Below, in pieces: positions 56,007 through 64,000 of a stretch of DNA of 64,000 bases. Both the position numbers and the translations under genes were made by a program. This DNA comes from an uncultured Clostridia bacterium (GTDB taxonomy: Bacteria; Bacillota; Clostridia; Christensenellales; UBA1242). Within the stretch, counting starts at the first letter, position 1. Each line of letters begins with the position of its first letter. Below the pieces are notes generated by a model, which saw only the letters and a program-made list of their open reading frames with translations, was not told the DNA's origin and searched no databases. The stretch is taken from assembly GCA_944381145.1 (NCBI GenBank), contig CALWJZ010000004.1:13314-77313 (forward strand), written 5' to 3'.

Positions 56007-56097
56007 GGAGACGTACCGAAGTGGCCGTACCGGGACGCACTCGAAATGCGTTTGTCAAGTAATTGGCACGAGAGTTCGAATCTCTCCGTCTCCGCCA
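56007..56097 (+). tRNA. tRNA-Ser (anticodon CGA), long variable arm, CCA encoded
   Basis: GGAGACG acceptor stem, anticodon arm ACGCA-CTCGAAA-TGCGT, variable arm TTGTCAAGTAATTGGCAC, T arm GAGAG-TTCGAAT-CTCTC, 3' CGTCTCCGCCA. Confidence 0.9.
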
Positions 56098-56098: not shown

Positions 56099-56205
56099 AA
56101 AAAAACAACTGCAGTTAGAGATTCTCACTCTTGCAGTGTACTCGCACTCACATACTTATTATTTTTACCTTATGTTCGTGCGAGGGCGTTCGCTTCGCTC
56201 GGCTC

Positions 56206-56227
56206 CGAATCTCTCCGTCTCCGCCAA
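56206..56227 (+). repeat. Direct repeat copy 2 (displaced tRNA-Ser 3' end, att-like)
   Basis: Exact 22-nt match to 56077-56098, followed 5 nt later by a strong terminator. Confidence 0.95.
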
Positions 56228-56232
56228 GAGCA

Positions 56233-56270
56233 AACAATCCGAACCATTTGTGGTTTCGGGTTGTTTTTTA
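56233..56270 (+). terminator. Strong intrinsic terminator, probably the original tRNA-Ser terminator
   Basis: About 14-bp stem AACAATCCGAACCA/TGGTTTCGGGTTGTT followed by a T-run. Confidence 0.75.
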
Positions 56271-57748
56271 TTATCAAAAAGTTCGCCATCTTCTGGTATT
56301 TCTTTAAGTTTTAAATGGGTTTTCTTGTCATCACTTGCATTGAAATAAATATCAACATGGTTATCAAATAAAACAACTTTGTTGATAAACATATCAATTA
56401 GTCTTTGTTTTGCCTTTTCGTTATTTTTGTCTATATCTTTAAATGACAAGAGATAAGTATAAACTTGTTCTTCATTAAATGGTTGTATTGATTGAGCAGA
56501 GACTTGTGCAATCTTTTCTTCCAACTCTTTTTTAGATATTTCAAGTTCTTTCATTCTTTGATTTGTAGTATCGTTAAAAATCCCATTTTCTATTGCAGAA
56601 AGAAGATTTTTAAGTTTTTTATTTATGTCTGAAAGTTCTTTTTCAAGTGCTTTTAGTTCGTGATTTTCTTCTGACTTTTATTATAAATTTCAGTAATCTT
56701 TTTTGCTAGTGCCTTTAAATCAATTTGCATAAAAAAGTTTTGTGTTGCCGTGAACACAATATCTTCTATATATTCTTTTGAAATAGATTTTTTGTCGCAT
56801 TTCTCTTTGTTTCTTTTCTTTGTAAAACATTTGTAGTAATTGTATATCTTTCCAAGTTTGCCTTTACCACTATCACCAGTCATTAAACCACCACATTTGC
56901 CACAAAGTAGTTTTCCACTTAAAAGATATTGCGTGTCGGTTTTGTAGTGTGCAGAGGTGCGTTTTCCGACTTTTAACTTCGCATTAACTTCATCAAAAAT
57001 CTCTTTACTAACAATTTGTGGATAGATATTTGTGTAAATAGTGTCATCGGCAGTTATAATACCCTTATAGTTTTCATTTCTTAAAATTCTGCTAACACTA
57101 TTTATATTCCACTCTGTGCCATATTTGTTTTTAATTCCAGTACTAGACAATTTTACAACAATATCTTTAATTCTTATACCAGAAAGATAATCGTTAAACA
57201 TTTGTCTAACAATATTTGCTTCCGTTTCATTTATCACAAGTCTTTGATTGATTTTGTCATATCCATAAGGAGTAGGTCCACCAGTAAATAAACCTTTAAT
57301 TCTGCTTTCTTTAAGCCCACGCTTAACTTTTTGACTAAGTTCAGCAGAATAATACTTGGCAAAACTTTTAAGCATCCCTTCGAGTATTATGCCTTCAGGA
57401 GTATTAGAAATCTGCTCTGTTGCCGAAACAACTTTAACACCATTTTTCTTCAAAATAGATTTGTTAATCGCACTATCATATCTTGACCTTGCAAATCTAT
57501 CAAATTTATAGACAAGAACAAAGTTCCATTCATGCTTTTTGCTGTCGCCAATCATTTGTTGAAAAGCAGGTCGCTTATCATTCGTTCCAGTCATAGCCCT
57601 GTCGACATATTCACCGACAACAGCATATCCATTCTTTTCAGCATATTCCTTGCAAACTCGCATTTGACCTTCAATACTCTGTTCAGTTTGGCTATCGCTT
57701 GAATATCTCGCATAAATAACCACTTTGTTCATAATTTTACTCCTTTTA

Positions 57749-58129
57749 TCAAATATTATATTTTGCTTTTATTTCTGCAATCTTTGTTAACATTACATTA
57801 ATTTTAGAAATATCATTATCTTTAGATAAATTTAAGTATTTAACTAATCCTACAAGTTCTTCTACTGCATCTTCGTTGATTTTTAAAATTCTAGTTGCAA
57901 TAAATCTAAAAATTTCTTCATCATGATTTATATCTACCATTAGGGCTAATATTTTTGTTTTATCTTTTTCTAAAATATATTTATCATTCTTAATAATCTC
58001 TTCAACGCATTTTTTTAAAGAGACATTTTTGTCCATAATATTGAAAATTTCATCTATTACTTGTGGACGGTAATTTGAAAATTGTAAAAACATTTGTTTA
58101 ATTGCAATTTTTATTTCATCTTTAGTCAT
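57749..58129 (-). CDS. Hypothetical helical protein (126 aa), cotranscribed with the methyltransferase
   Basis: Overlaps the M1 stop by 8 nt. No recognisable motif; it is not Vsr-like. Confidence 0.5.
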   Translation of the reverse strand: MTKDEIKIAIKQMFLQFSNYRPQVIDEIFNIMDKNVSLKKCVEEIIKNDKYILEKDKTKILALMVDINHDEEIFRFIATRILKINEDAVEELVGLVKYLNLSKDNDISKINVMLTKIAEIKAKYNI

Positions 58130-59081
58130 TATTTTCTCCTTCGTTAATAATTGTAAAAATATTTTTCGCTATTCTTTCAATAACAGTGACACAAACACTA
58201 TTTCCTGCTTGTTTATACAATTGAGCAGTAGAAATATTTGGCAAAACATAATCCTTTGGAAAGCCTTGTAAGTTAAAACATTCTTTTGGAGTTAATTTTC
58301 TAATTCCAAATTTTGTAATGACTAATGGAACATTATGTCCACCAGTTCCCATGTTTGCAGTTAAAGTTGGAGACAAGTTGCTTTTGTTTTGTCTTACATA
58401 TTGTCTTCGCCATTGATACAACGTGTCTTGGTTATTAAATTCTTGCATTGCACTTACGATTTTAGAATACTTTTCATAAGTATAATAATATTTATCCTCA
58501 ACTTTATTATCAAAATCTATCACATCTTTTAATTTTGTTGTTAATGGAATTGGGGTAGGAAAATAAAATTTGTTAGCAAATTCTTCATTTAAAAAACCAA
58601 CGATGTATATTCTTTCCCTGTTTTGTGGGAGATTACCATACTCGCAAGCATTAAGCACCATATAACGAACGTGATAACCTATTTCTTTTAAGGTCGTTAA
58701 TATTATATCAAAAGTTTTTCCATTATCATGAGCAACTAAATTTTTAACATTCTCTAAGAACACTACTTGTGGTTTTCGTTCTCTTAAAATTCTAGCAATT
58801 TCAAAAAACAATGTTCCCCGAGTATCTTCAAATCCTTTTCTATAACCAGCAACAGAAAAAGCTTGGCATGGAAATCCTGCTATTAAACAATCAAAATCCG
58901 GCAAATCGTTGGCACTAATATTTTTTACATCTTCACATACAGACTTAATTTTGAAGTTTGCGTCAAAAGTCTTACATGCATAACAATCTATATCGTTTGC
59001 AAATATAGTTTTGAAGCCTGCGTTTTCAAATGCAATGTCTATTCCACCAACCCCACTAAATAAACTTACAACTCTGTTCAT
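58122..59081 (-). CDS. DNA (cytosine-5)-methyltransferase (M1)
   Basis: Motif I FSGVGG, IV GFPCQAFS, VI ENV, VIII QNRERIYIVG, X GNSV. Confidence 0.92.
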   Translation of the reverse strand: MNRVVSLFSGVGGIDIAFENAGFKTIFANDIDCYACKTFDANFKIKSVCEDVKNISANDLPDFDCLIAGFPCQAFSVAGYRKGFEDTRGTLFFEIARILRERKPQVVFLENVKNLVAHDNGKTFDIILTTLKEIGYHVRYMVLNACEYGNLPQNRERIYIVGFLNEEFANKFYFPTPIPLTTKLKDVIDFDNKVEDKYYYTYEKYSKIVSAMQEFNNQDTLYQWRRQYVRQNKSNLSPTLTANMGTGGHNVPLVITKFGIRKLTPKECFNLQGFPKDYVLPNISTAQLYKQAGNSVCVTVIERIAKNIFTIINEGENND

Positions 59082-59144
59082 AGTTTTTGCAGCATGCCGC
59101 TTATTAAATATCTATAATAAACGGCACACCCTTTCCTCCTTTTG

Positions 59145-59687
59145 TTAATCTATCAATTTTATTCTTTTGATAGGTTTTATATTTTTCTCTTTAATTAATT
59201 TTTTTAATGATAATCTAGGTCTTCGACCTTGTTCTTGTTGCATTTTAAATGTTTCATTTTTCTTTGCGTTGAGAATAACATCATCAAGAGCAAAGTCCAA
59301 ACGATAAACATCTATAATGCCATCAATTTTACCAGTTGTCGCAAAATCCATGAAATACAATTCATCCCATTTTGACCTTGGTCCAAATGATGTGCAATCG
59401 TTTGCTATAGAAGCCGATTTAACTTGAACTCCCGCTCCATTGTCAAGATTTACACAATCATAAGAGTGTGCAGTGTTATTTGTCCTTACTGCATTAAAAT
59501 AAATACAATAAAGAGCTTCACTAAAAACATCTGGAACATTAAGCCCACGACCGCCTAAAGATGTGACTTTTTTGTTGATTTCTAGCCACTCGGCAAAAAT
59601 TTCTTTTAATGTGATTAAATCCTTATTATCAAATTTATCACCATAGATAATTTCACCATTTTTTAATTTAACTTTAACTTTTTCCAA
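59145..59687 (-). CDS. Putative small type II restriction endonuclease (R1)
   Basis: 180 aa directly upstream of M1. Candidate PD-(D/E)xK-like SYDCVNLDNGAGVQVKSAS. TTG start. Possibly the Bsp6I-like family (from memory, unverified). Confidence 0.5.
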   Translation of the reverse strand: MEKVKVKLKNGEIIYGDKFDNKDLITLKEIFAEWLEINKKVTSLGGRGLNVPDVFSEALYCIYFNAVRTNNTAHSYDCVNLDNGAGVQVKSASIANDCTSFGPRSKWDELYFMDFATTGKIDGIIDVYRLDFALDDVILNAKKNETFKMQQEQGRRPRLSLKKLIKEKNIKPIKRIKLID

Positions 59688-59712
59688 CTTGGCTTTAGGT
59701 GTACCTATACAT

Positions 59713-59721
59713 ATTATAACA
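59713..59721 (-). promoter_or_regulatory. Extended -10 element (TGTTATAAT) upstream of R1
   Basis: Minus strand TGTTATAAT, about 26 nt upstream of the TTG start. No clear -35. Confidence 0.35.
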
Positions 59722-59740
59722 TATTTTTGATAAAAAGTAG

Positions 59741-60691
59741 CTAATTTTCAAAAATTTTTATAATCTCTTTAGCAATAATTTCAATAATTGGAACACAAAC
59801 GCTATTGCCAATCTGTTTATATGCTTGATTTAAACTTATTCCTTTTGGAAACTTATAATCATTTGGAAATCCTTGAAAAGCTAAAAGTTCGTATGGAGTT
59901 AGTTTTCTTATTCCAAATATATCTCTAATTATTGGAACGCGATTTGGGAATGTTCCCATATTTGCAGTTAGCGTAGGACATAAATCTTTAGTAAATGGAA
60001 ATATCCCATTGTCTTTTATTTTATAAATTCTATAAAACTCAACAACCTTTTTATTAAGAGCATTAAATAGCGATGAATTTTCTTTGTAGTAATAACAATC
60101 ATTATGCTTTTGATTTATATCAAAAAATTGGTTTACGGTCTTAGTTGTATTGCTTTTGTCTGGAAATTTGAATTTACAACTGTCATCATAATCTCTAAAA
60201 GCAACTATGTATATTCTGTCTCTATTTTGTGGGATATTTGTATACTCATATACATTCATAAAAGCATATCTAATTGTATAGCCAAGTTGTGTTAAACTTA
60301 TAAATATTTTTTCAAAACTTTTTCCGTTATTATGATTGCCGAGATTTGAAACGTTTTCTAAAAACACAACCCTTGGCTTTTTATCTTTTACGACTCGTTC
60401 TATTTGATAAAATAATTGTCCACGCTCGTCGTTAAATCCTTGTTGTTTGCCAGCAATGGAGAATGGTTGACAAGGAAATCCTGCAGTTAACACATCAATA
60501 TCAGGGATATCTTGTGTATTAATGTTTCTAATGTCATCTTCAACTAGATAGCTATTGTCAAAATTTTCAGCATATGTTTTACATGCATATTTATCAATTT
60601 CGTTTGCCCACACAGTTTCAAATCCAGCTTTATTAAAACCTAAATCTATACCACCAATACCAGCAAACATGCTCGCTATTTTAATTTTCAT
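59741..60691 (-). CDS. DNA (cytosine-5)-methyltransferase (M2)
   Basis: Motif I FAGIGG, IV GFPCQPFS, VI ENV, VIII QNRDRIYIVA, X GNSV. The target-recognition region differs from M1. Confidence 0.92.
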   Translation of the reverse strand: MKIKIASMFAGIGGIDLGFNKAGFETVWANEIDKYACKTYAENFDNSYLVEDDIRNINTQDIPDIDVLTAGFPCQPFSIAGKQQGFNDERGQLFYQIERVVKDKKPRVVFLENVSNLGNHNNGKSFEKIFISLTQLGYTIRYAFMNVYEYTNIPQNRDRIYIVAFRDYDDSCKFKFPDKSNTTKTVNQFFDINQKHNDCYYYKENSSLFNALNKKVVEFYRIYKIKDNGIFPFTKDLCPTLTANMGTFPNRVPIIRDIFGIRKLTPYELLAFQGFPNDYKFPKGISLNQAYKQIGNSVCVPIIEIIAKEIIKIFEN

Positions 60692-61811
60692 TTATATTTT
60701 CCTTAACTATTGCATTTAAAGAAGAAATTAAATCATTTTCATTATTGTTTAATATGTCATAAATATTTTTATGCATAAAATATTCTTTCGGACTAGAGGC
60801 AGACCGTTCAAGAATAGCAAATTCAATTTTATATATATCATTTTGCAACTTAAAATTATTTATGCACGCATTACCATAGACTTTGATATAAATGTTGCTT
60901 TTGTTCATTTTTATTATACTAATATTTTCTAAATGTTCAATTTTAATATCTAGTGTTTTTACATTTTGTCTTTTAACAAACTTTTTATACCAATTATCAT
61001 TAAATTTGTAAACATTATCATAGACCCTTGTCATAAAATGAGATAACTGTATATTAACTGTTGGCTTTGGTGGTTGTGAAAAGTCTTTTATAGAAATTTC
61101 ATTATTTATGTACTGTACACTTTCGCCAGGCATACAAGATGTGGCTTTTTTTAAAAAGTCTTCAGCTTTTGTGATTATTAAAACATCAACATCACCTATT
61201 TTGTTATTACCTAAGTTAATTTTGTTTGTTTGAGAAATTAATTCATCGCATTCACACTCTAAGAACGTCTCATTGTTCATTTTTAATTTTTCATATATAT
61301 CTTGACTAAATAAACTTTCATTAAAGAATGGTAATAAATAGTCAATATTAAAAGTTGATTCTGCAAAAATTAAAAATTTACCACTATAGTGTTGGTCTCT
61401 TAGTGTTAACATTTTTTGAGATACCTTTAAAGTTTTAACTTCAATTTGTGGATAATCCTTATTCTTATGCCAACAAATGTCATTACCATATTTACCAAAA
61501 ACACAAAATGGAATTTCTTTATTGTTAATTTTTATTCCTAATACATCGGGAGCTATGCCAACTTTTTTAGGGTTATACAAATAAAAATCTTGAATTAACT
61601 CTACATCTAAATCTTTATAATATTTTAATTTTGGTTTTATATACTCATTAAAAATAATACTCTCTGGGATTGTGTTAATCCATCGGTCAAAAATTCCACC
61701 CATTAAATCACCCTTGGATGATAAGACCCCTTGCATAGAAGTTTTTGTCTTTTGAGTTAAACTACAAATAAAATATATATTTTTTAGTGACTTGTCTTTT
61801 GTTATCTCCAT
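60681..61811 (-). CDS. Putative type II restriction endonuclease (R2)
   Basis: 376 aa (377 codons counting the stop) from ATG 61811, which lies 7 nt after AAGGAG. Overlaps the M2 start by 11 nt. PD...(E)xK candidate IAPDVLG...PQIEVKT. No family recognised. Confidence 0.5.
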   Translation of the reverse strand: MEITKDKSLKNIYFICSLTQKTKTSMQGVLSSKGDLMGGIFDRWINTIPESIIFNEYIKPKLKYYKDLDVELIQDFYLYNPKKVGIAPDVLGIKINNKEIPFCVFGKYGNDICWHKNKDYPQIEVKTLKVSQKMLTLRDQHYSGKFLIFAESTFNIDYLLPFFNESLFSQDIYEKLKMNNETFLECECDELISQTNKINLGNNKIGDVDVLIITKAEDFLKKATSCMPGESVQYINNEISIKDFSQPPKPTVNIQLSHFMTRVYDNVYKFNDNWYKKFVKRQNVKTLDIKIEHLENISIIKMNKSNIYIKVYGNACINNFKLQNDIYKIEFAILERSASSPKEYFMHKNIYDILNNNENDLISSLNAIVKENINEN

Positions 61812-61889
61812 ACTTATTCTCCTTGAGAAAAGTATATCATAAAAATACAAAAATTTAGACTTTTTTAGCTCAATTTATATATATTTTTA

Positions 61890-62045
61890 GTAAGCAGGAT
61901 AAGGAATAGGCTCAAAATCGGATTTTCGGCCGCCAAAATGCCTATAAATAAAGACTTTTAGACGACTCACCCTAGAAAAGAAGAAGTTTCGATTTTGAGT
62001 CATTCCCCTTACTTGACCAAGTGGGACGCCCACTCGTCTTTTTTT
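61890..62045 (+). ncRNA. Candidate structured small RNA or leader (unknown class)
   Basis: Promoter-like TTAGAC-17-TATATA (61855-61883). Long imperfect stem: GCTCAAAATCG 61910-61920 pairs with CGATTTTGAGT 61990-62000, with flanking GGAAT/ATTCC and TAAGG/CCTTA pairs. Terminator GAC-CA-AGTGGG-ACG-CCCACT-C-GTC followed by T7 (62015-62045). Noticeably GC-richer than its surroundings. Confidence 0.3.
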
Positions 62046-62157
62046 GTTGAAAATATAGCAAAATACTATGAAATATATATACTAAATATGGACTAAAAAG
62101 TCCTTGGATTAAAGTCAATAGGCTGCTAGCATACCTTTTATAAAATTATAAAAGCTT

Positions 62158-62397
62158 ATGAAAACTATTGACAAAATTCAAAGTTTTATTGATTGTAAAG
62201 ATATAGAAGAAAATACAGCTGTTTACAACTTTAATGACAACTCATTAAAACAAGGTAAAGTATACTTAAACTCGAAGCAACTTGAAAGAATATCCTTTCT
62301 TTTTGCCTACGATTTAAAAACCTTTTCCAAAGTAAATAGCAATATTTCAACCCTATCAGCAAATGCAGTCTACACTCATTTGCAAAACAATCAATAA
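62158..62397 (+). CDS. Hypothetical 79-aa ORF (doubtful)
   Basis: The ORF lies between two terminator-like hairpins and has no convincing Shine-Dalgarno. Confidence 0.25.
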   Translation: MKTIDKIQSFIDCKDIEENTAVYNFNDNSLKQGKVYLNSKQLERISFLFAYDLKTFSKVNSNISTLSANAVYTHLQNNQ

Positions 62398-62403
62398 AAC
62401 ACC

Positions 62404-62438
62404 AAGAAGAAGTTGAAATATGCTTCTTCTTTATATTT
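62404..62438 (+). terminator. Terminator-like hairpin
   Basis: AAGAAGAAG-loop-CTTCTTCTT followed by TTATATTT. Confidence 0.45.
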
Positions 62439-62463
62439 AATATTAAACTCGTATTGAATACAC

Positions 62464-62492
62464 TTGACAGTGCAATAAAAATATAATATAAT
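62464..62492 (+). promoter_or_regulatory. Perfect-consensus sigma-A promoter TTGACA-17-TATAAT for the two-gene cassette
   Basis: TTGACA at 62464-62469 and TATAAT at 62487-62492. AAAGGAG lies 6 nt before ATG 62517. Confidence 0.6.
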
Positions 62493-62516
62493 ATTATAAT
62501 ATGCAAAGGAGTAAAT

Positions 62517-63092
62517 ATGGAATATAAAGAAAAGATTGACATGTTAAACGAAGTTTTAGAAGTAATTAAAAAATATCCTGAAAATTTACAAGAAAAGGTT
62601 TTTGATTTTTTATTCAGTAGTCAAATAACCACAAATAAGCAAGAAAATTTTGAAAATAACGATCTAGAAAACGATAAAAATGGACAAAAGACAACGATAA
62701 ATAAAAAGAAAAGGAAAAAGGCAGCATCTTCAACATCCTATACAAATAGTTACAAACCTCAACTTGTGAAAGATTTAAACTTACGACCTGATAACACGAA
62801 GACATTAACTCAGTTTTTTGAAGAAAAAAGACCAGAAGGTAACATTCAAAATACCGCAGTAATGACTTACTATCTTGAAAAAATACTTAATCTTGACAAT
62901 ATAACCCCAGACCATATTTTTACTTGTTATATGGAACTTGGTAAAAAGATACCTGCAGTTTTAATTCAAAATTTAAGGGATTGTAGTAGCAGTAGATATG
63001 GTTTTATTGACTTTGTAGACGGGAAAATAACAACATCAATAAAAGGAATTAATTTTGTAACTCAAGATTTACCACACAAGGATAATAAATAA
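62517..63092 (+). CDS. Hypothetical protein: N-terminal helix, basic/low-complexity linker, C-terminal winged-helix-like domain
   Basis: 191 aa. Linker NKKKRKKAASSTS. The C-terminal domain (about 96-181) resembles the N-terminal domain of the next protein. Confidence 0.6.
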   Translation: MEYKEKIDMLNEVLEVIKKYPENLQEKVFDFLFSSQITTNKQENFENNDLENDKNGQKTTINKKKRKKAASSTSYTNSYKPQLVKDLNLRPDNTKTLTQFFEEKRPEGNIQNTAVMTYYLEKILNLDNITPDHIFTCYMELGKKIPAVLIQNLRDCSSSRYGFIDFVDGKITTSIKGINFVTQDLPHKDNK

Positions 63093-63835
63093 TGTACTCA
63101 ATGGATTTGCTGGAAAATTTCGTTTTTACAATTGAAGATTTTAATAATTATACACCTGCAAAGCAAATAGATTATTTTGCATATTTTTTGCATTTAAATA
63201 ATATGGATAAATTTACAGCAAAAGATATAGAATTATGCTTTGAATTGTTAAAATATCCAAAATACTCTAATATATCAGCGTATTTAAATAACAATTCAAA
63301 TACAAAGAATAAAAAATTTATAAAGAAAGATACTGGAATTTTTACTATTACAAGACAATTTCAAAATAAATTTGATAAAGAATTTAGTAACATTAAAGCA
63401 CCTCCTCCATCAAATGATTTATTTCCTCTTGAGATAGTTGAAGGAACAAGAGAATATATAAAAGAAATTTCTATCCAAGCAATAAGTTGTTATGATTTAA
63501 AATTATTCGATGCTTGTTCAGTAATGTTAAGAAAGTTAATAGAAACACTAATTATAGAGTGCTTTGAGAAGTATAAAATTGATATAAAAATAAAAGATAA
63601 AAATGGAGAGTTTTTCTATTTAAGTGATTTAATAAGCAATCTTTTGATAGAGCCAACATGGAATATAAGTAGAAACGCAAAGCAAGGTTTTAAAAAAATC
63701 AAAACAATAGGAGATTTGGCTGCTCACAATCGTAGATTTTGTGCTAAAAAGGGCGATATAGATAAGATTAAGCAAGATATACGCATATGTATTCAAGAAT
63801 TAATCAATTTAATCGATTACAAGAATTGGAAATAA
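63092..63835 (+). CDS. Hypothetical protein: N-terminal winged-helix-like domain plus C-terminal DUF4145/HEPN-like domain
   Basis: 247 aa. The start overlaps the previous stop (TAATG). The C-terminal pattern ACSVMLRKLIETLIIECF...LSDLISNL...KKIKTIGDLAAHNRRF matches the DUF4145 layout (RxxGNxxxH), but with K and D in place of R and N. Confidence 0.6.
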   Translation: MYSMDLLENFVFTIEDFNNYTPAKQIDYFAYFLHLNNMDKFTAKDIELCFELLKYPKYSNISAYLNNNSNTKNKKFIKKDTGIFTITRQFQNKFDKEFSNIKAPPPSNDLFPLEIVEGTREYIKEISIQAISCYDLKLFDACSVMLRKLIETLIIECFEKYKIDIKIKDKNGEFFYLSDLISNLLIEPTWNISRNAKQGFKKIKTIGDLAAHNRRFCAKKGDIDKIKQDIRICIQELINLIDYKNWK

Positions 63836-63956
63836 ATAATCTCATCCACCCGACGCCAATAAATATTTTTGTGTTAGGATTGGATGTCAGTCTTCCCGCC
63901 AAGTGAAACTGATAACAACAATTTTATCTTCTTGTCAGTCCATTATTTGAGGGGTT

Positions 63957-64000
63957 ATGGGTAAAGTTTTATTAATTGTAGATATGCAAAAAGGGTTTAT
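63957..64000 (+). CDS. Isochorismatase/cysteine-hydrolase family protein (N-terminal fragment, continues beyond window)
   Basis: GAGGGG SD, then MGKVLLIVDMQKGF, a typical N-terminus of the family. Confidence 0.6.
   Translation, partial: MGKVLLIVDMQKGF

Follow-up and report, generated by a model that had tools for sequence, protein, structure and literature searches.

What does a small two-gene cassette do when it travels with restriction-modification (R-M) genes and yet matches no described system? We met this question in a 64,000-nucleotide stretch of DNA from an uncultured Clostridia bacterium (contig CALWJZ010000004.1; the whole stretch is called the window here), in which two overlapping genes encode P1, a partner protein, and P2. 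The first-pass annotation of this DNA had read the cassette as a defence or abortive-infection module of new architecture, with a perfect promoter, two translationally coupled genes, a strongly basic linker (KKKRKK) in P1, a domain common to both proteins and a DUF4145-like domain at the end of P2, in which KTIGDLAAH stands in place of RxxGNxxxH. These features are all present, and the comparison with relatives adds to them: P1 and P2 form an obligate pair, profile comparison makes the common domain a paralogous winged-helix (wH) module, and the effector domain of P2 belongs to the HEPN fold class. We tentatively propose, giving the idea not quite an even chance, that P1-P2 is a toxin-antitoxin (TA)-like or abortive-infection module on mobile elements, in which a latent HEPN RNase is controlled by its partner.

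How tightly are the two genes bound to each other? In the window the stop codon of P1 overlaps the start codon of P2, an arrangement of translational coupling, and a ribosome-binding site (AAAGGAG) lies 5 nt ahead of the P1 ATG. Upstream stands the promoter (TTGACA at 62464-69, a 17-nt spacer, TATAAT at 62487-92), the only perfect TTGACA-17-TATAAT of the window, where 0.05 would be expected. Both hexamers are kept in the relatives' loci L002, L003 and L010, and the -35 hexamer only in L012. Next to the -35 box is a palindrome, a candidate operator, that occurs at 2 sites in the window against 0.18 expected. It is kept at this place in relatives (GTATTAAATAC in L002), with extra AATAC half-sites after the -35 box.

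The coupling extends far beyond this genome. A scan of one genome per species gave 223 relatives, from which 80 loci were retrieved, 64 of them non-redundant. A P1-family gene sits directly upstream of P2 on the same strand in 62 of these 64, in Bacillota, Bacteroidota, Proteobacteria and the candidate phyla radiation (Shapirobacteria), and the partner's stop codon falls anywhere between 10 nt ahead of the P2 start and 37 nt beyond it (start calls in the relatives being those of the longest open reading frame, ORF). One exception lies at a contig edge; the other, L027, is discussed below. The P1-P2 pair is thus obligate, rather than a chance neighbourhood of scattered homologues.

What joins the two proteins is visible in their predicted structures. 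The AlphaFold2 (AF2) model of P1 has a predicted local distance difference test score (pLDDT) of 74.6, with residues 37-72 below 50 and predicted to be disordered. In all of the partner proteins aligned, a stretch rich in K, R and S leads up to the C-terminal module. The N-terminal module of P2 is modelled at a pLDDT of about 90, and Foldseek matches it in the PDB to the winged helices of PadR, IclR, FOX and F93; the winged-helix matches of the P1 module are weak and generic. The two models have identical topology (H-H-H-H-E-E-H). When the C-termini of 53 partners were aligned with the N-termini of 178 P2 sequences by hhalign, the profiles matched over 90 columns with a probability of 93.7% and an E-value of 1.9e-7; the score of 43.8 compares with a maximum of 16.4 in the controls (reversed and 20 column-shuffled profiles). 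In addition, a hidden Markov model of the P1 C-terminal domain, run against 7508 ORFs, picks out the N-termini of 4 P2 homologues (E 4e-5 to 6e-4). Judged by these alignments and models, the C-terminal domain of P1 and the N-terminal domain of P2 are paralogues, as the first reading of the sequence had suspected. The module has no Pfam match among 50 members, and neither P1 nor P2 has a usable match in PADLOC, NCBIfam or PHROGs, so that these four libraries offer no known regulator or housekeeping family for either protein. Foldseek against viral structures gave no significant match.

P2 ends in the part that would act on the cell. In its AF2 model (pLDDT 92.9) residues 113-247 are all-helical, and the top Foldseek match of this domain in the PDB is 2hsb (template modelling score, TM, to the target 0.77; root-mean-square deviation 2.9 over 124 columns; probability 1.0), with further matches to 2q00 (TM 0.71), 1ufb, Csm6, AbiA and HepT (5yep, 6m6u). 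On this model the C-terminus has the all-helical HEPN core fold. A P2 profile finds no match to PDB sequences at E<=10. The DUF4145-like layout is borne out by homologues: 16 of 30 match DUF4145 (PF13643) at E<=0.01, with a best E-value of 7.3e-6, two homologues carry a precomputed PF13643 match, and three others are named "DUF4145 domain-containing" by NCBI or UniRef. DUF4145 itself lies within the HEPN superfamily, in Pfam clan CL0291 (KNTase_C) (PMC3710099), and is a proven RNase in RAZR/PD-T7-4, with R146 and H154 as catalytic residues (PMC13017515).

The motif of P2 reads K204-T-I-G-D208-L-A-A-H212, and K204, D208 and H212 are invariant in the 30 homologues; R147 and E151 sit in helix 2 of the same domain. 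An exhaustive search with the C-terminal 142 residues returned at least 876 cluster representatives, 599 of them at E<=1e-10. Among the best 150 of the 876, which range from about 100 to 515 residues, the HEPN-like domain invariably forms the C-terminus; just 27 have the P2-type N-terminus and the domain is otherwise joined to many other N-termini, a variety typical of defence effectors. Across the same 150, R147 is found in all, E151 in 149, H212 in 148 and R214 in 138, while K204 is kept in 143 (R in 6) and D208 in 139 (N in 5). Because it is conserved across these representatives, the altered motif is a fixed signature of a large subfamily and not a local degeneration.

Two loci carry the HEPN-like domain on an unrelated N-terminus, in proteins of about 265-270 aa (L081 9210-10471; L083 7440-8692). 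There, too, an upstream partner of about 150 aa overlaps or abuts the effector gene, and the two partners are 45% identical to each other. BLASTP detects no domain common to the L081 partner and its own effector, and a kinship between the N-terminal helices of P1 and those of the L083 partner was dropped, the similarity not being significant. From these loci, a partner joined to a Lys-type HEPN domain may be a broader theme.

Is such a domain a nuclease at all? Inactive HEPN families do exist (Anantharaman et al. 2013, PMC3710099), and with its motif Arg replaced, P2 could be a binder of nucleotides or RNA that does not cut. In that case the pair, which brings at least two wH modules per system, would regulate genes at the transcriptional or post-transcriptional level, the adjoining restriction genes being one example. 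We give this very little credence: the near invariance of R147, E151, H212 and R214 over the 150 representatives is typical of catalytic sites, the neighbours vary from locus to locus and so provide no constant target gene, and Lys can replace Arg in phosphoryl-transfer sites.

How, then, would a toxin-like P2 be held in check? By analogy with RnlA and RAZR, we picture P2 as a latent RNase whose active site would be formed by the pairing of two HEPN domains. In resting cells P1 would bind P2 through the paralogous wH modules, possibly with both sitting jointly on nucleic acid, and would keep the HEPN domain inactive, either by blocking productive dimerisation or by occluding the site, as the retron IX winged-helix protein does for its HEPN effector. 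The complex would probably also act on the palindrome beside the -35 box and so repress the promoter of the pair. P1 would be removed or remodelled by some trigger, the candidates being phage proteins or nucleases, foreign DNA and the loss of the element, and the released P2 would cleave cellular RNA; growth would stop, and either the population would be protected or the element stabilised. This scheme is built on what the data show, namely the coupling of the genes, the paralogous modules, the HEPN fold, the constrained site, the obligate pairing and a mobile, defence-rich context.

The partner proteins themselves come in several forms, and these invite a different reading. In the short form, that of the window, a linker joins about 50 helical residues to one module. 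Medium partners of about 310 aa have two modules (hhalign probability 91%), long partners of about 390 aa have a double zinc ribbon (PF12773, E down to 4e-8) followed by two modules, and at 4 loci the partner joins a beta-rich N-terminal domain to one module. A word-indexed profile search for P1 found 41 proteins and missed the Bacteroidota partners that the locus analysis brought out. In some relatives of the window, P2 is directly followed by P3, a third paralogue of the wH module (E 2e-10), which is precisely absent from the window, reflecting either a clean deletion there or an insertion in the relatives. In the window's lineage, the unit is thus a 79-aa gene, P1, P2 and, in relatives, P3.

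Since the N-termini are the variable part of the partners, as sensors should be, P1 might not silence P2 but switch it on, acting as a sensor or adaptor for a phage protein or invading nucleic acid that recruits or oligomerises P2 by way of the wH module common to both. On this view the pair would be the equivalent of RAZR in two polypeptides, with the wH modules, the basic linker and, in long forms, the double zinc ribbon doing the sensing. RAZR, in fact, combines a zinc ribbon with a DUF4145 HEPN RNase and causes abortive infection when it is activated by assembly on phage rings (PMC13017515). An intact P2 that has lost P1, as in L027, would also be easier to tolerate if P2 were inactive by default. 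On the other hand, P1 of the window lacks a zinc ribbon and has two helices only, a smaller partner gene that comes first and overlaps the next by a stop/start resembles antitoxin-toxin operons, and no trigger is known. We therefore hold a sensing role for P1 to be unlikely, while taking it seriously.

Could the pair simply be RAZR, or another known system, in disguise? Like RAZR/PD-T7-4, P2 has a DUF4145-branch HEPN effector domain at its C-terminus and the same x7 spacing between the basic residue and His, and zinc ribbons recur in the long partners. RAZR is, however, a single protein with R146/H154 and an N-terminal Cys4 zinc ribbon, whereas in P2, which comes with an obligate partner gene, the residues are K204/H212 and the N-terminus is a winged helix. 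Membership was rejected: P2 carries no zinc ribbon, matches no PADLOC family at E<=1 and no PDB sequence, and belongs to a two-gene system.

Type IX retrons, compared here by description, come close in logic. They pair a HEPN RNase that lacks the canonical Rx4-6H motif with a separate helix-turn-helix partner, and the P1-family partners with a beta-rich N-terminal domain and a wH module add to the likeness. In the retron, the winged-helix protein wraps the HEPN protein and covers its site; release comes when a phage nuclease cuts the multicopy single-stranded DNA scaffold (10.64898/2026.07.14.738597, 10.64898/2026.07.14.737667). The order of the active-site residues differs, with His before Arg in the retron (H64, R122) and R147 before H212 in P2. 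A retron was rejected, as the ORFs of the window's element are all accounted for and none is a reverse transcriptase. Rfam finds no retron RNA at 61700-64000, and reverse transcriptase families are not among the most frequent neighbour families of the relatives.

RnlA-RnlB and LsoA-LsoB are likewise bicistronic, pairing a HEPN RNase with a protein inhibitor in an anti-phage role, and the catalytic R255, E258, R318 and H323 of RnlA parallel R147/E151 and K204/H212 of P2; RnlB blocks the HEPN dimer site of RnlA (PMC8266594). Unlike P1, RnlB has no winged-helix paralogy with the N-terminus of its toxin, and there is no sequence similarity to P1-P2. The gene order of rnlAB, toxin first, is also opposite to that of P1-P2. 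HEPN-MNT (type VII) TA systems share the HEPN fold, with HepT among the structural matches, and are small two-gene mobile modules, but in P2 the HEPN domain is fused to a wH module. They were rejected because P1 and the partner C-terminal segments of 49 loci contain no nucleotidyltransferase (0 Pfam matches). AbiEi/AbiEii was rejected as well: the AbiEi_2 match reaches only E 0.13 and 13 bits against a cut-off of 21, and P2 has no nucleotidyltransferase.

With type II TA systems in general, the pair shares a bicistronic overlap, an upstream partner with a DNA-binding fold and a mobile, patchy distribution; as candidate-operator evidence for autoregulation there is only the conserved palindrome beside the -35 box. 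Other DUF4145 defence proteins, namely BxaP (PMC10799925), Ishtar1 (10.64898/2026.07.06.735840) and the fusions of AbiJ-NTD, restriction endonuclease (REase) and helicase (PMC3710099), similarly put a DUF4145-type HEPN effector together with variable domains and lie beside R-M systems and symE, as at our locus L088. Their accessory domains are different, and none has been described with a partner gene that shares a domain paralogous to one of the effector. We found no description of the P1-P2 pair in the searchable literature and no PADLOC match, in keeping with the first impression that no described system has this architecture.

If P1-P2 is a defence module, what company does it keep? In about 6 loci AbiLi and AbiLii lie directly upstream of the pair in apparent four-gene operons, with tight arrays of AbiLi (AAA_21), AbiLii (RloB), P1-like and P2-like genes in L024, L042 (224-3864), L059, L062, L066 and L069. 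Such packing points to a functional link, in one sub-lineage, between the pair and an OLD-like ATPase/Toprim system. Elsewhere, the pair is found near GmrSD-HNH and an EcoRI-type methylase, beside a type I R-M system and a Rep protein, near a SymE toxin and HNH (L088), or with Vsr, NgoFVII-type enzymes, integrases and transposases. One mobilisable element carries it together with a relaxase, a primase, toxSAS and an integrase, and in Flavobacterium sp. N1736 (L089, 5693-16699) an IS1595-flanked insertion with the pair and a SocA/Panacea-domain gene splits a resistance-nodulation-division efflux (ACR_tran) gene. An Allomuricauda locus shows no obvious island around the pair, and tblastn against the phage and plasmid collections found no relatives of the pair. 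Read locus by locus, the neighbourhoods abound in genes of restriction, Abi systems, toxins and mobile elements.

Pairing, HEPN fold and context thus support the early idea of a defence or abortive-infection module; the defence function itself we infer from them. Several points weigh against a partner-controlled toxin. Toxicity, RNase activity and P1-P2 binding are all matters that we infer. Many neighbours of the pair are ordinary metabolic genes. In L027, a contig of a metagenome-assembled genome, P2 is intact and an insertion sequence (IS) element takes the place of P1, 117 nt upstream, which argues against P1 as an indispensable antitoxin, though the promoter may also be lost. For the effector, the Foldseek E-values are weak (best 0.04), because the P2 query has two domains, and P2 of the window scores E 0.009 and 16.5 bits against DUF4145, below the gathering score of 23.1; architecture variants of the domain score 14-22 bits. 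Lastly, with Arg changed to Lys and Asn to Asp in the canonical motif, the chemistry of P2 could differ from that of known HEPN RNases. Because P2 fails both the Pfam threshold and the catalytic motif (Rx4-6H, in DUF4145 R..GN...H), we do not file it as a plain DUF4145 member; we assign its effector domain to the HEPN fold class, as a divergent relation to DUF4145.

Where does the pair sit in the window itself? The first reading had placed it in a tRNA-linked island directly beside two R-M systems. The neighbours are as stated (two C5 methylases, a Bsp6I-like REase, a serine recombinase and tRNA-Ser), but the cassette is not merely adjacent to them. In fact, blastn against close relatives shows three shared blocks (56206-57749, 61893-63836 and 63842-63902), and among the window, L002, L003 and L009-L012 only the recombinase and the segment made of the 79-aa gene, P1, P2, P3 where present, and the terminal segment are shared, while the R-M cargo between them differs; relatives have other R-M genes in the cargo position. 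We conclude that the pair forms the conserved end module of a serine-recombinase element, roughly 7.7 kb long, that integrates at tRNA-Ser and carries exchangeable R-M cargo.

The ends of the element tell of its insertion. An intact tRNA-Ser(cga) at 56007-56097 is followed 108 nt on by a second copy of its 3' end (56206-56237, 91% identical), and the left block common to the relatives begins exactly at this second copy; the repeated 3' ends are probably attachment (att) remnants and signs of an earlier tandem insertion. At the other end, GTCTTCCCGCCAAG at 63882-63895 resembles the tRNA-Ser 3' end GTCTCCGCCAAG (by eye, against 56216-56228 and L002) and on this likeness is probably the attR side. 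In L002, too, the insertion lies at a tRNA, and the 3' end of that tRNA recurs at the right end. Long direct repeats that could serve as att site were not found, only the short imperfect repeat of the tRNA-Ser 3' end. This tRNA-Ser was called by ARAGORN; Rfam at the gathering threshold lists only the window's other two tRNAs. Directly after the element an ORF that begins with MGKVLLIVDMQKGF (63958-64000, plus strand) runs off the window and may encode an isochorismatase- or nicotinamidase-type hydrolase.

The left block is 72% identical in DNA to L002 and L009, and its recombinase has Resolvase, Recombinase and Zn_ribbon_recom domains. The recombinase gene (56165-57732, minus strand) has a frameshift near codon 356 relative to the 510-aa protein of L002; the element may have been immobilised by it, unless it is a sequencing error. 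In the cargo, a 389-aa ORF (60681-61850, minus strand) overlaps the second C5 methylase and matches nothing in Pfam or PADLOC; it is probably an unclassified restriction enzyme. A 126-aa ORF (57749-58129, minus strand) adjoins the first methylase and has no family match.

The right block opens with a non-coding stretch upstream of the 79-aa ORF (61893-62050, plus strand) that is 75-80% identical in relatives. Within it, GGCTCAAAATCG and CGATTTTGAGTC can pair as a long-range stem, and 62020-62034 is a terminator-like hairpin; the stretch folds as RNA at -42.6 kcal/mol (z -2.7), the 4 sequences being insufficient to judge covariation. Rfam has no match for it, and it might serve the element as a DNA site or be transcribed as a leader or small RNA. 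The 79-aa protein, whose gene falls within the same conserved block, is 47-58% identical in L002, L003, L010 and L012, with 0 matches in Pfam, NCBIfam, PADLOC and PHROGs. The features of the element and of the pair are collected in Table 1.

Table 1. Coordinates of the mobile element, the P1-P2 pair and their parts (nt, nucleotides of the window; L numbers, loci of relatives).
Feature	Location	Strand	Basis or remark
Left conserved block: large serine recombinase; starts at partial tRNA-Ser 3' copy	56206..57749	-	blastn
Variable cargo: 126-aa ORF, C5 methylase (M.C5) + Bsp6I-like REase, M.C5 + 389-aa ORF	57750..61892	-	Pfam/PADLOC; not shared with relatives
Right conserved block: structured non-coding stretch, 79-aa gene, P1, P2	61893-63836	+	blastn
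79-aa ORF, first gene of lineage-specific module	62158..62397	+	conserved as protein
Terminator-like hairpin 3' of 79-aa ORF	62404..62431	+	10-pair stem, then T-rich tail; kept in relatives
11-bp palindrome GTATTGAATAC, candidate operator, touching -35 box	62451..62461	.	conservation; putative function
Consensus sigma-70/sigma-A type promoter, TTGACA-17-TATAAT	62464..62492	+	12/12 match
P1 (partner protein, 191 aa)	62517..63092	+	ORF
P1 N-terminal helices (two)	aa 3-44	+	AF2 model
P1 KKKRKK in basic linker	aa 63-68, nt 62703-62720	+	sequence; AF2 disorder
P1 wH module	aa 97-184, nt 62805-63068	+	AF2 model, weak fold matches
TAATG stop/start overlap, translational coupling	63090..63094	+	read from sequence: P1 TAA / P2 ATG
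P2 (247 aa)	63092..63835	+	ORF
P2 N-terminal wH module	aa 1-98, nt 63092..63385	+	hhalign to P1 module, AF2, Foldseek
P2 C-terminal HEPN-fold domain, DUF4145-like subfamily	aa 113-247, nt 63428..63835	+	Foldseek, sub-threshold DUF4145, residue conservation
P2 motif K204..G..D208...H212-N-R-R	nt 63701-63736	+	sequence
Terminal segment of element	63842..63902	.	82-88% identity to segment 3' of P3 in L002, L003, L010, L011
P3 (173 aa), directly 3' of P2 in relatives	L002 10756-11277; L003 9476-9997; L012 3423-3965		third wH paralogue

So constant a place in the element raises the thought that the 79-aa gene, P1, P2 and P3 belong to its backbone and control excision, integration, replication or maintenance, with the wH proteins as DNA-binding regulators. 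The recombinase and this module are indeed the sole blocks shared by the window, L002, L003 and L009-L012, about 50 nt separate the end of the module from the probable att site, and the palindrome at its promoter is conserved. Over the whole family the picture is different: a serine recombinase lies within seven genes of the pair in just 8 of 64 loci, and the pair is also found with tyrosine integrases, with IS elements or with no recombinase. A strictly conserved HEPN-type site would be unexpected in an excision regulator, and P3 can be precisely lost. A backbone role is therefore, in our view, improbable.

A bolder version of the partner-controlled RNase can be drawn, which we consider quite a long shot. 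The paralogous wH modules (1-2 in P1, 1 in P2, 1 in P3) would co-assemble on DNA or RNA into a higher-order complex and cage the Lys-type HEPN domain, damage to the scaffold or an invader's competition for it would free the RNase, and serine-recombinase elements that shuttle R-M cargo would have recruited the whole as a guard module. Such nucleic-acid-templated HEPN immune modules would be a class of their own and new, following by analogy a retron-IX-like logic without a reverse transcriptase.

HEPN RNases are recurring immune effectors (Cas13, Csm6, RnlA, RAZR, retron IX), and the point of interest is how each of them is silenced. The P1-P2 family represents a distinct solution, an obligate partner with a domain that is duplicated in the effector, and its Lys-for-Arg site variant is strictly conserved in a subfamily of at least 876 cluster representatives. 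As a HEPN-based toxin or abortive-infection module the system is best called known in kind; the partner family, the winged-helix module and the Lys-type site are new here. The pair is absent from PADLOC 2.0, and defence annotation built on that library therefore misses the family. The 7.7-kb element, with its fixed recombinase and module and its exchangeable R-M middle, is a tidy model of how defence cargo is shuttled in gut Clostridia. If the function is confirmed, the defence catalogue would gain a new two-gene system and a new winged-helix family.

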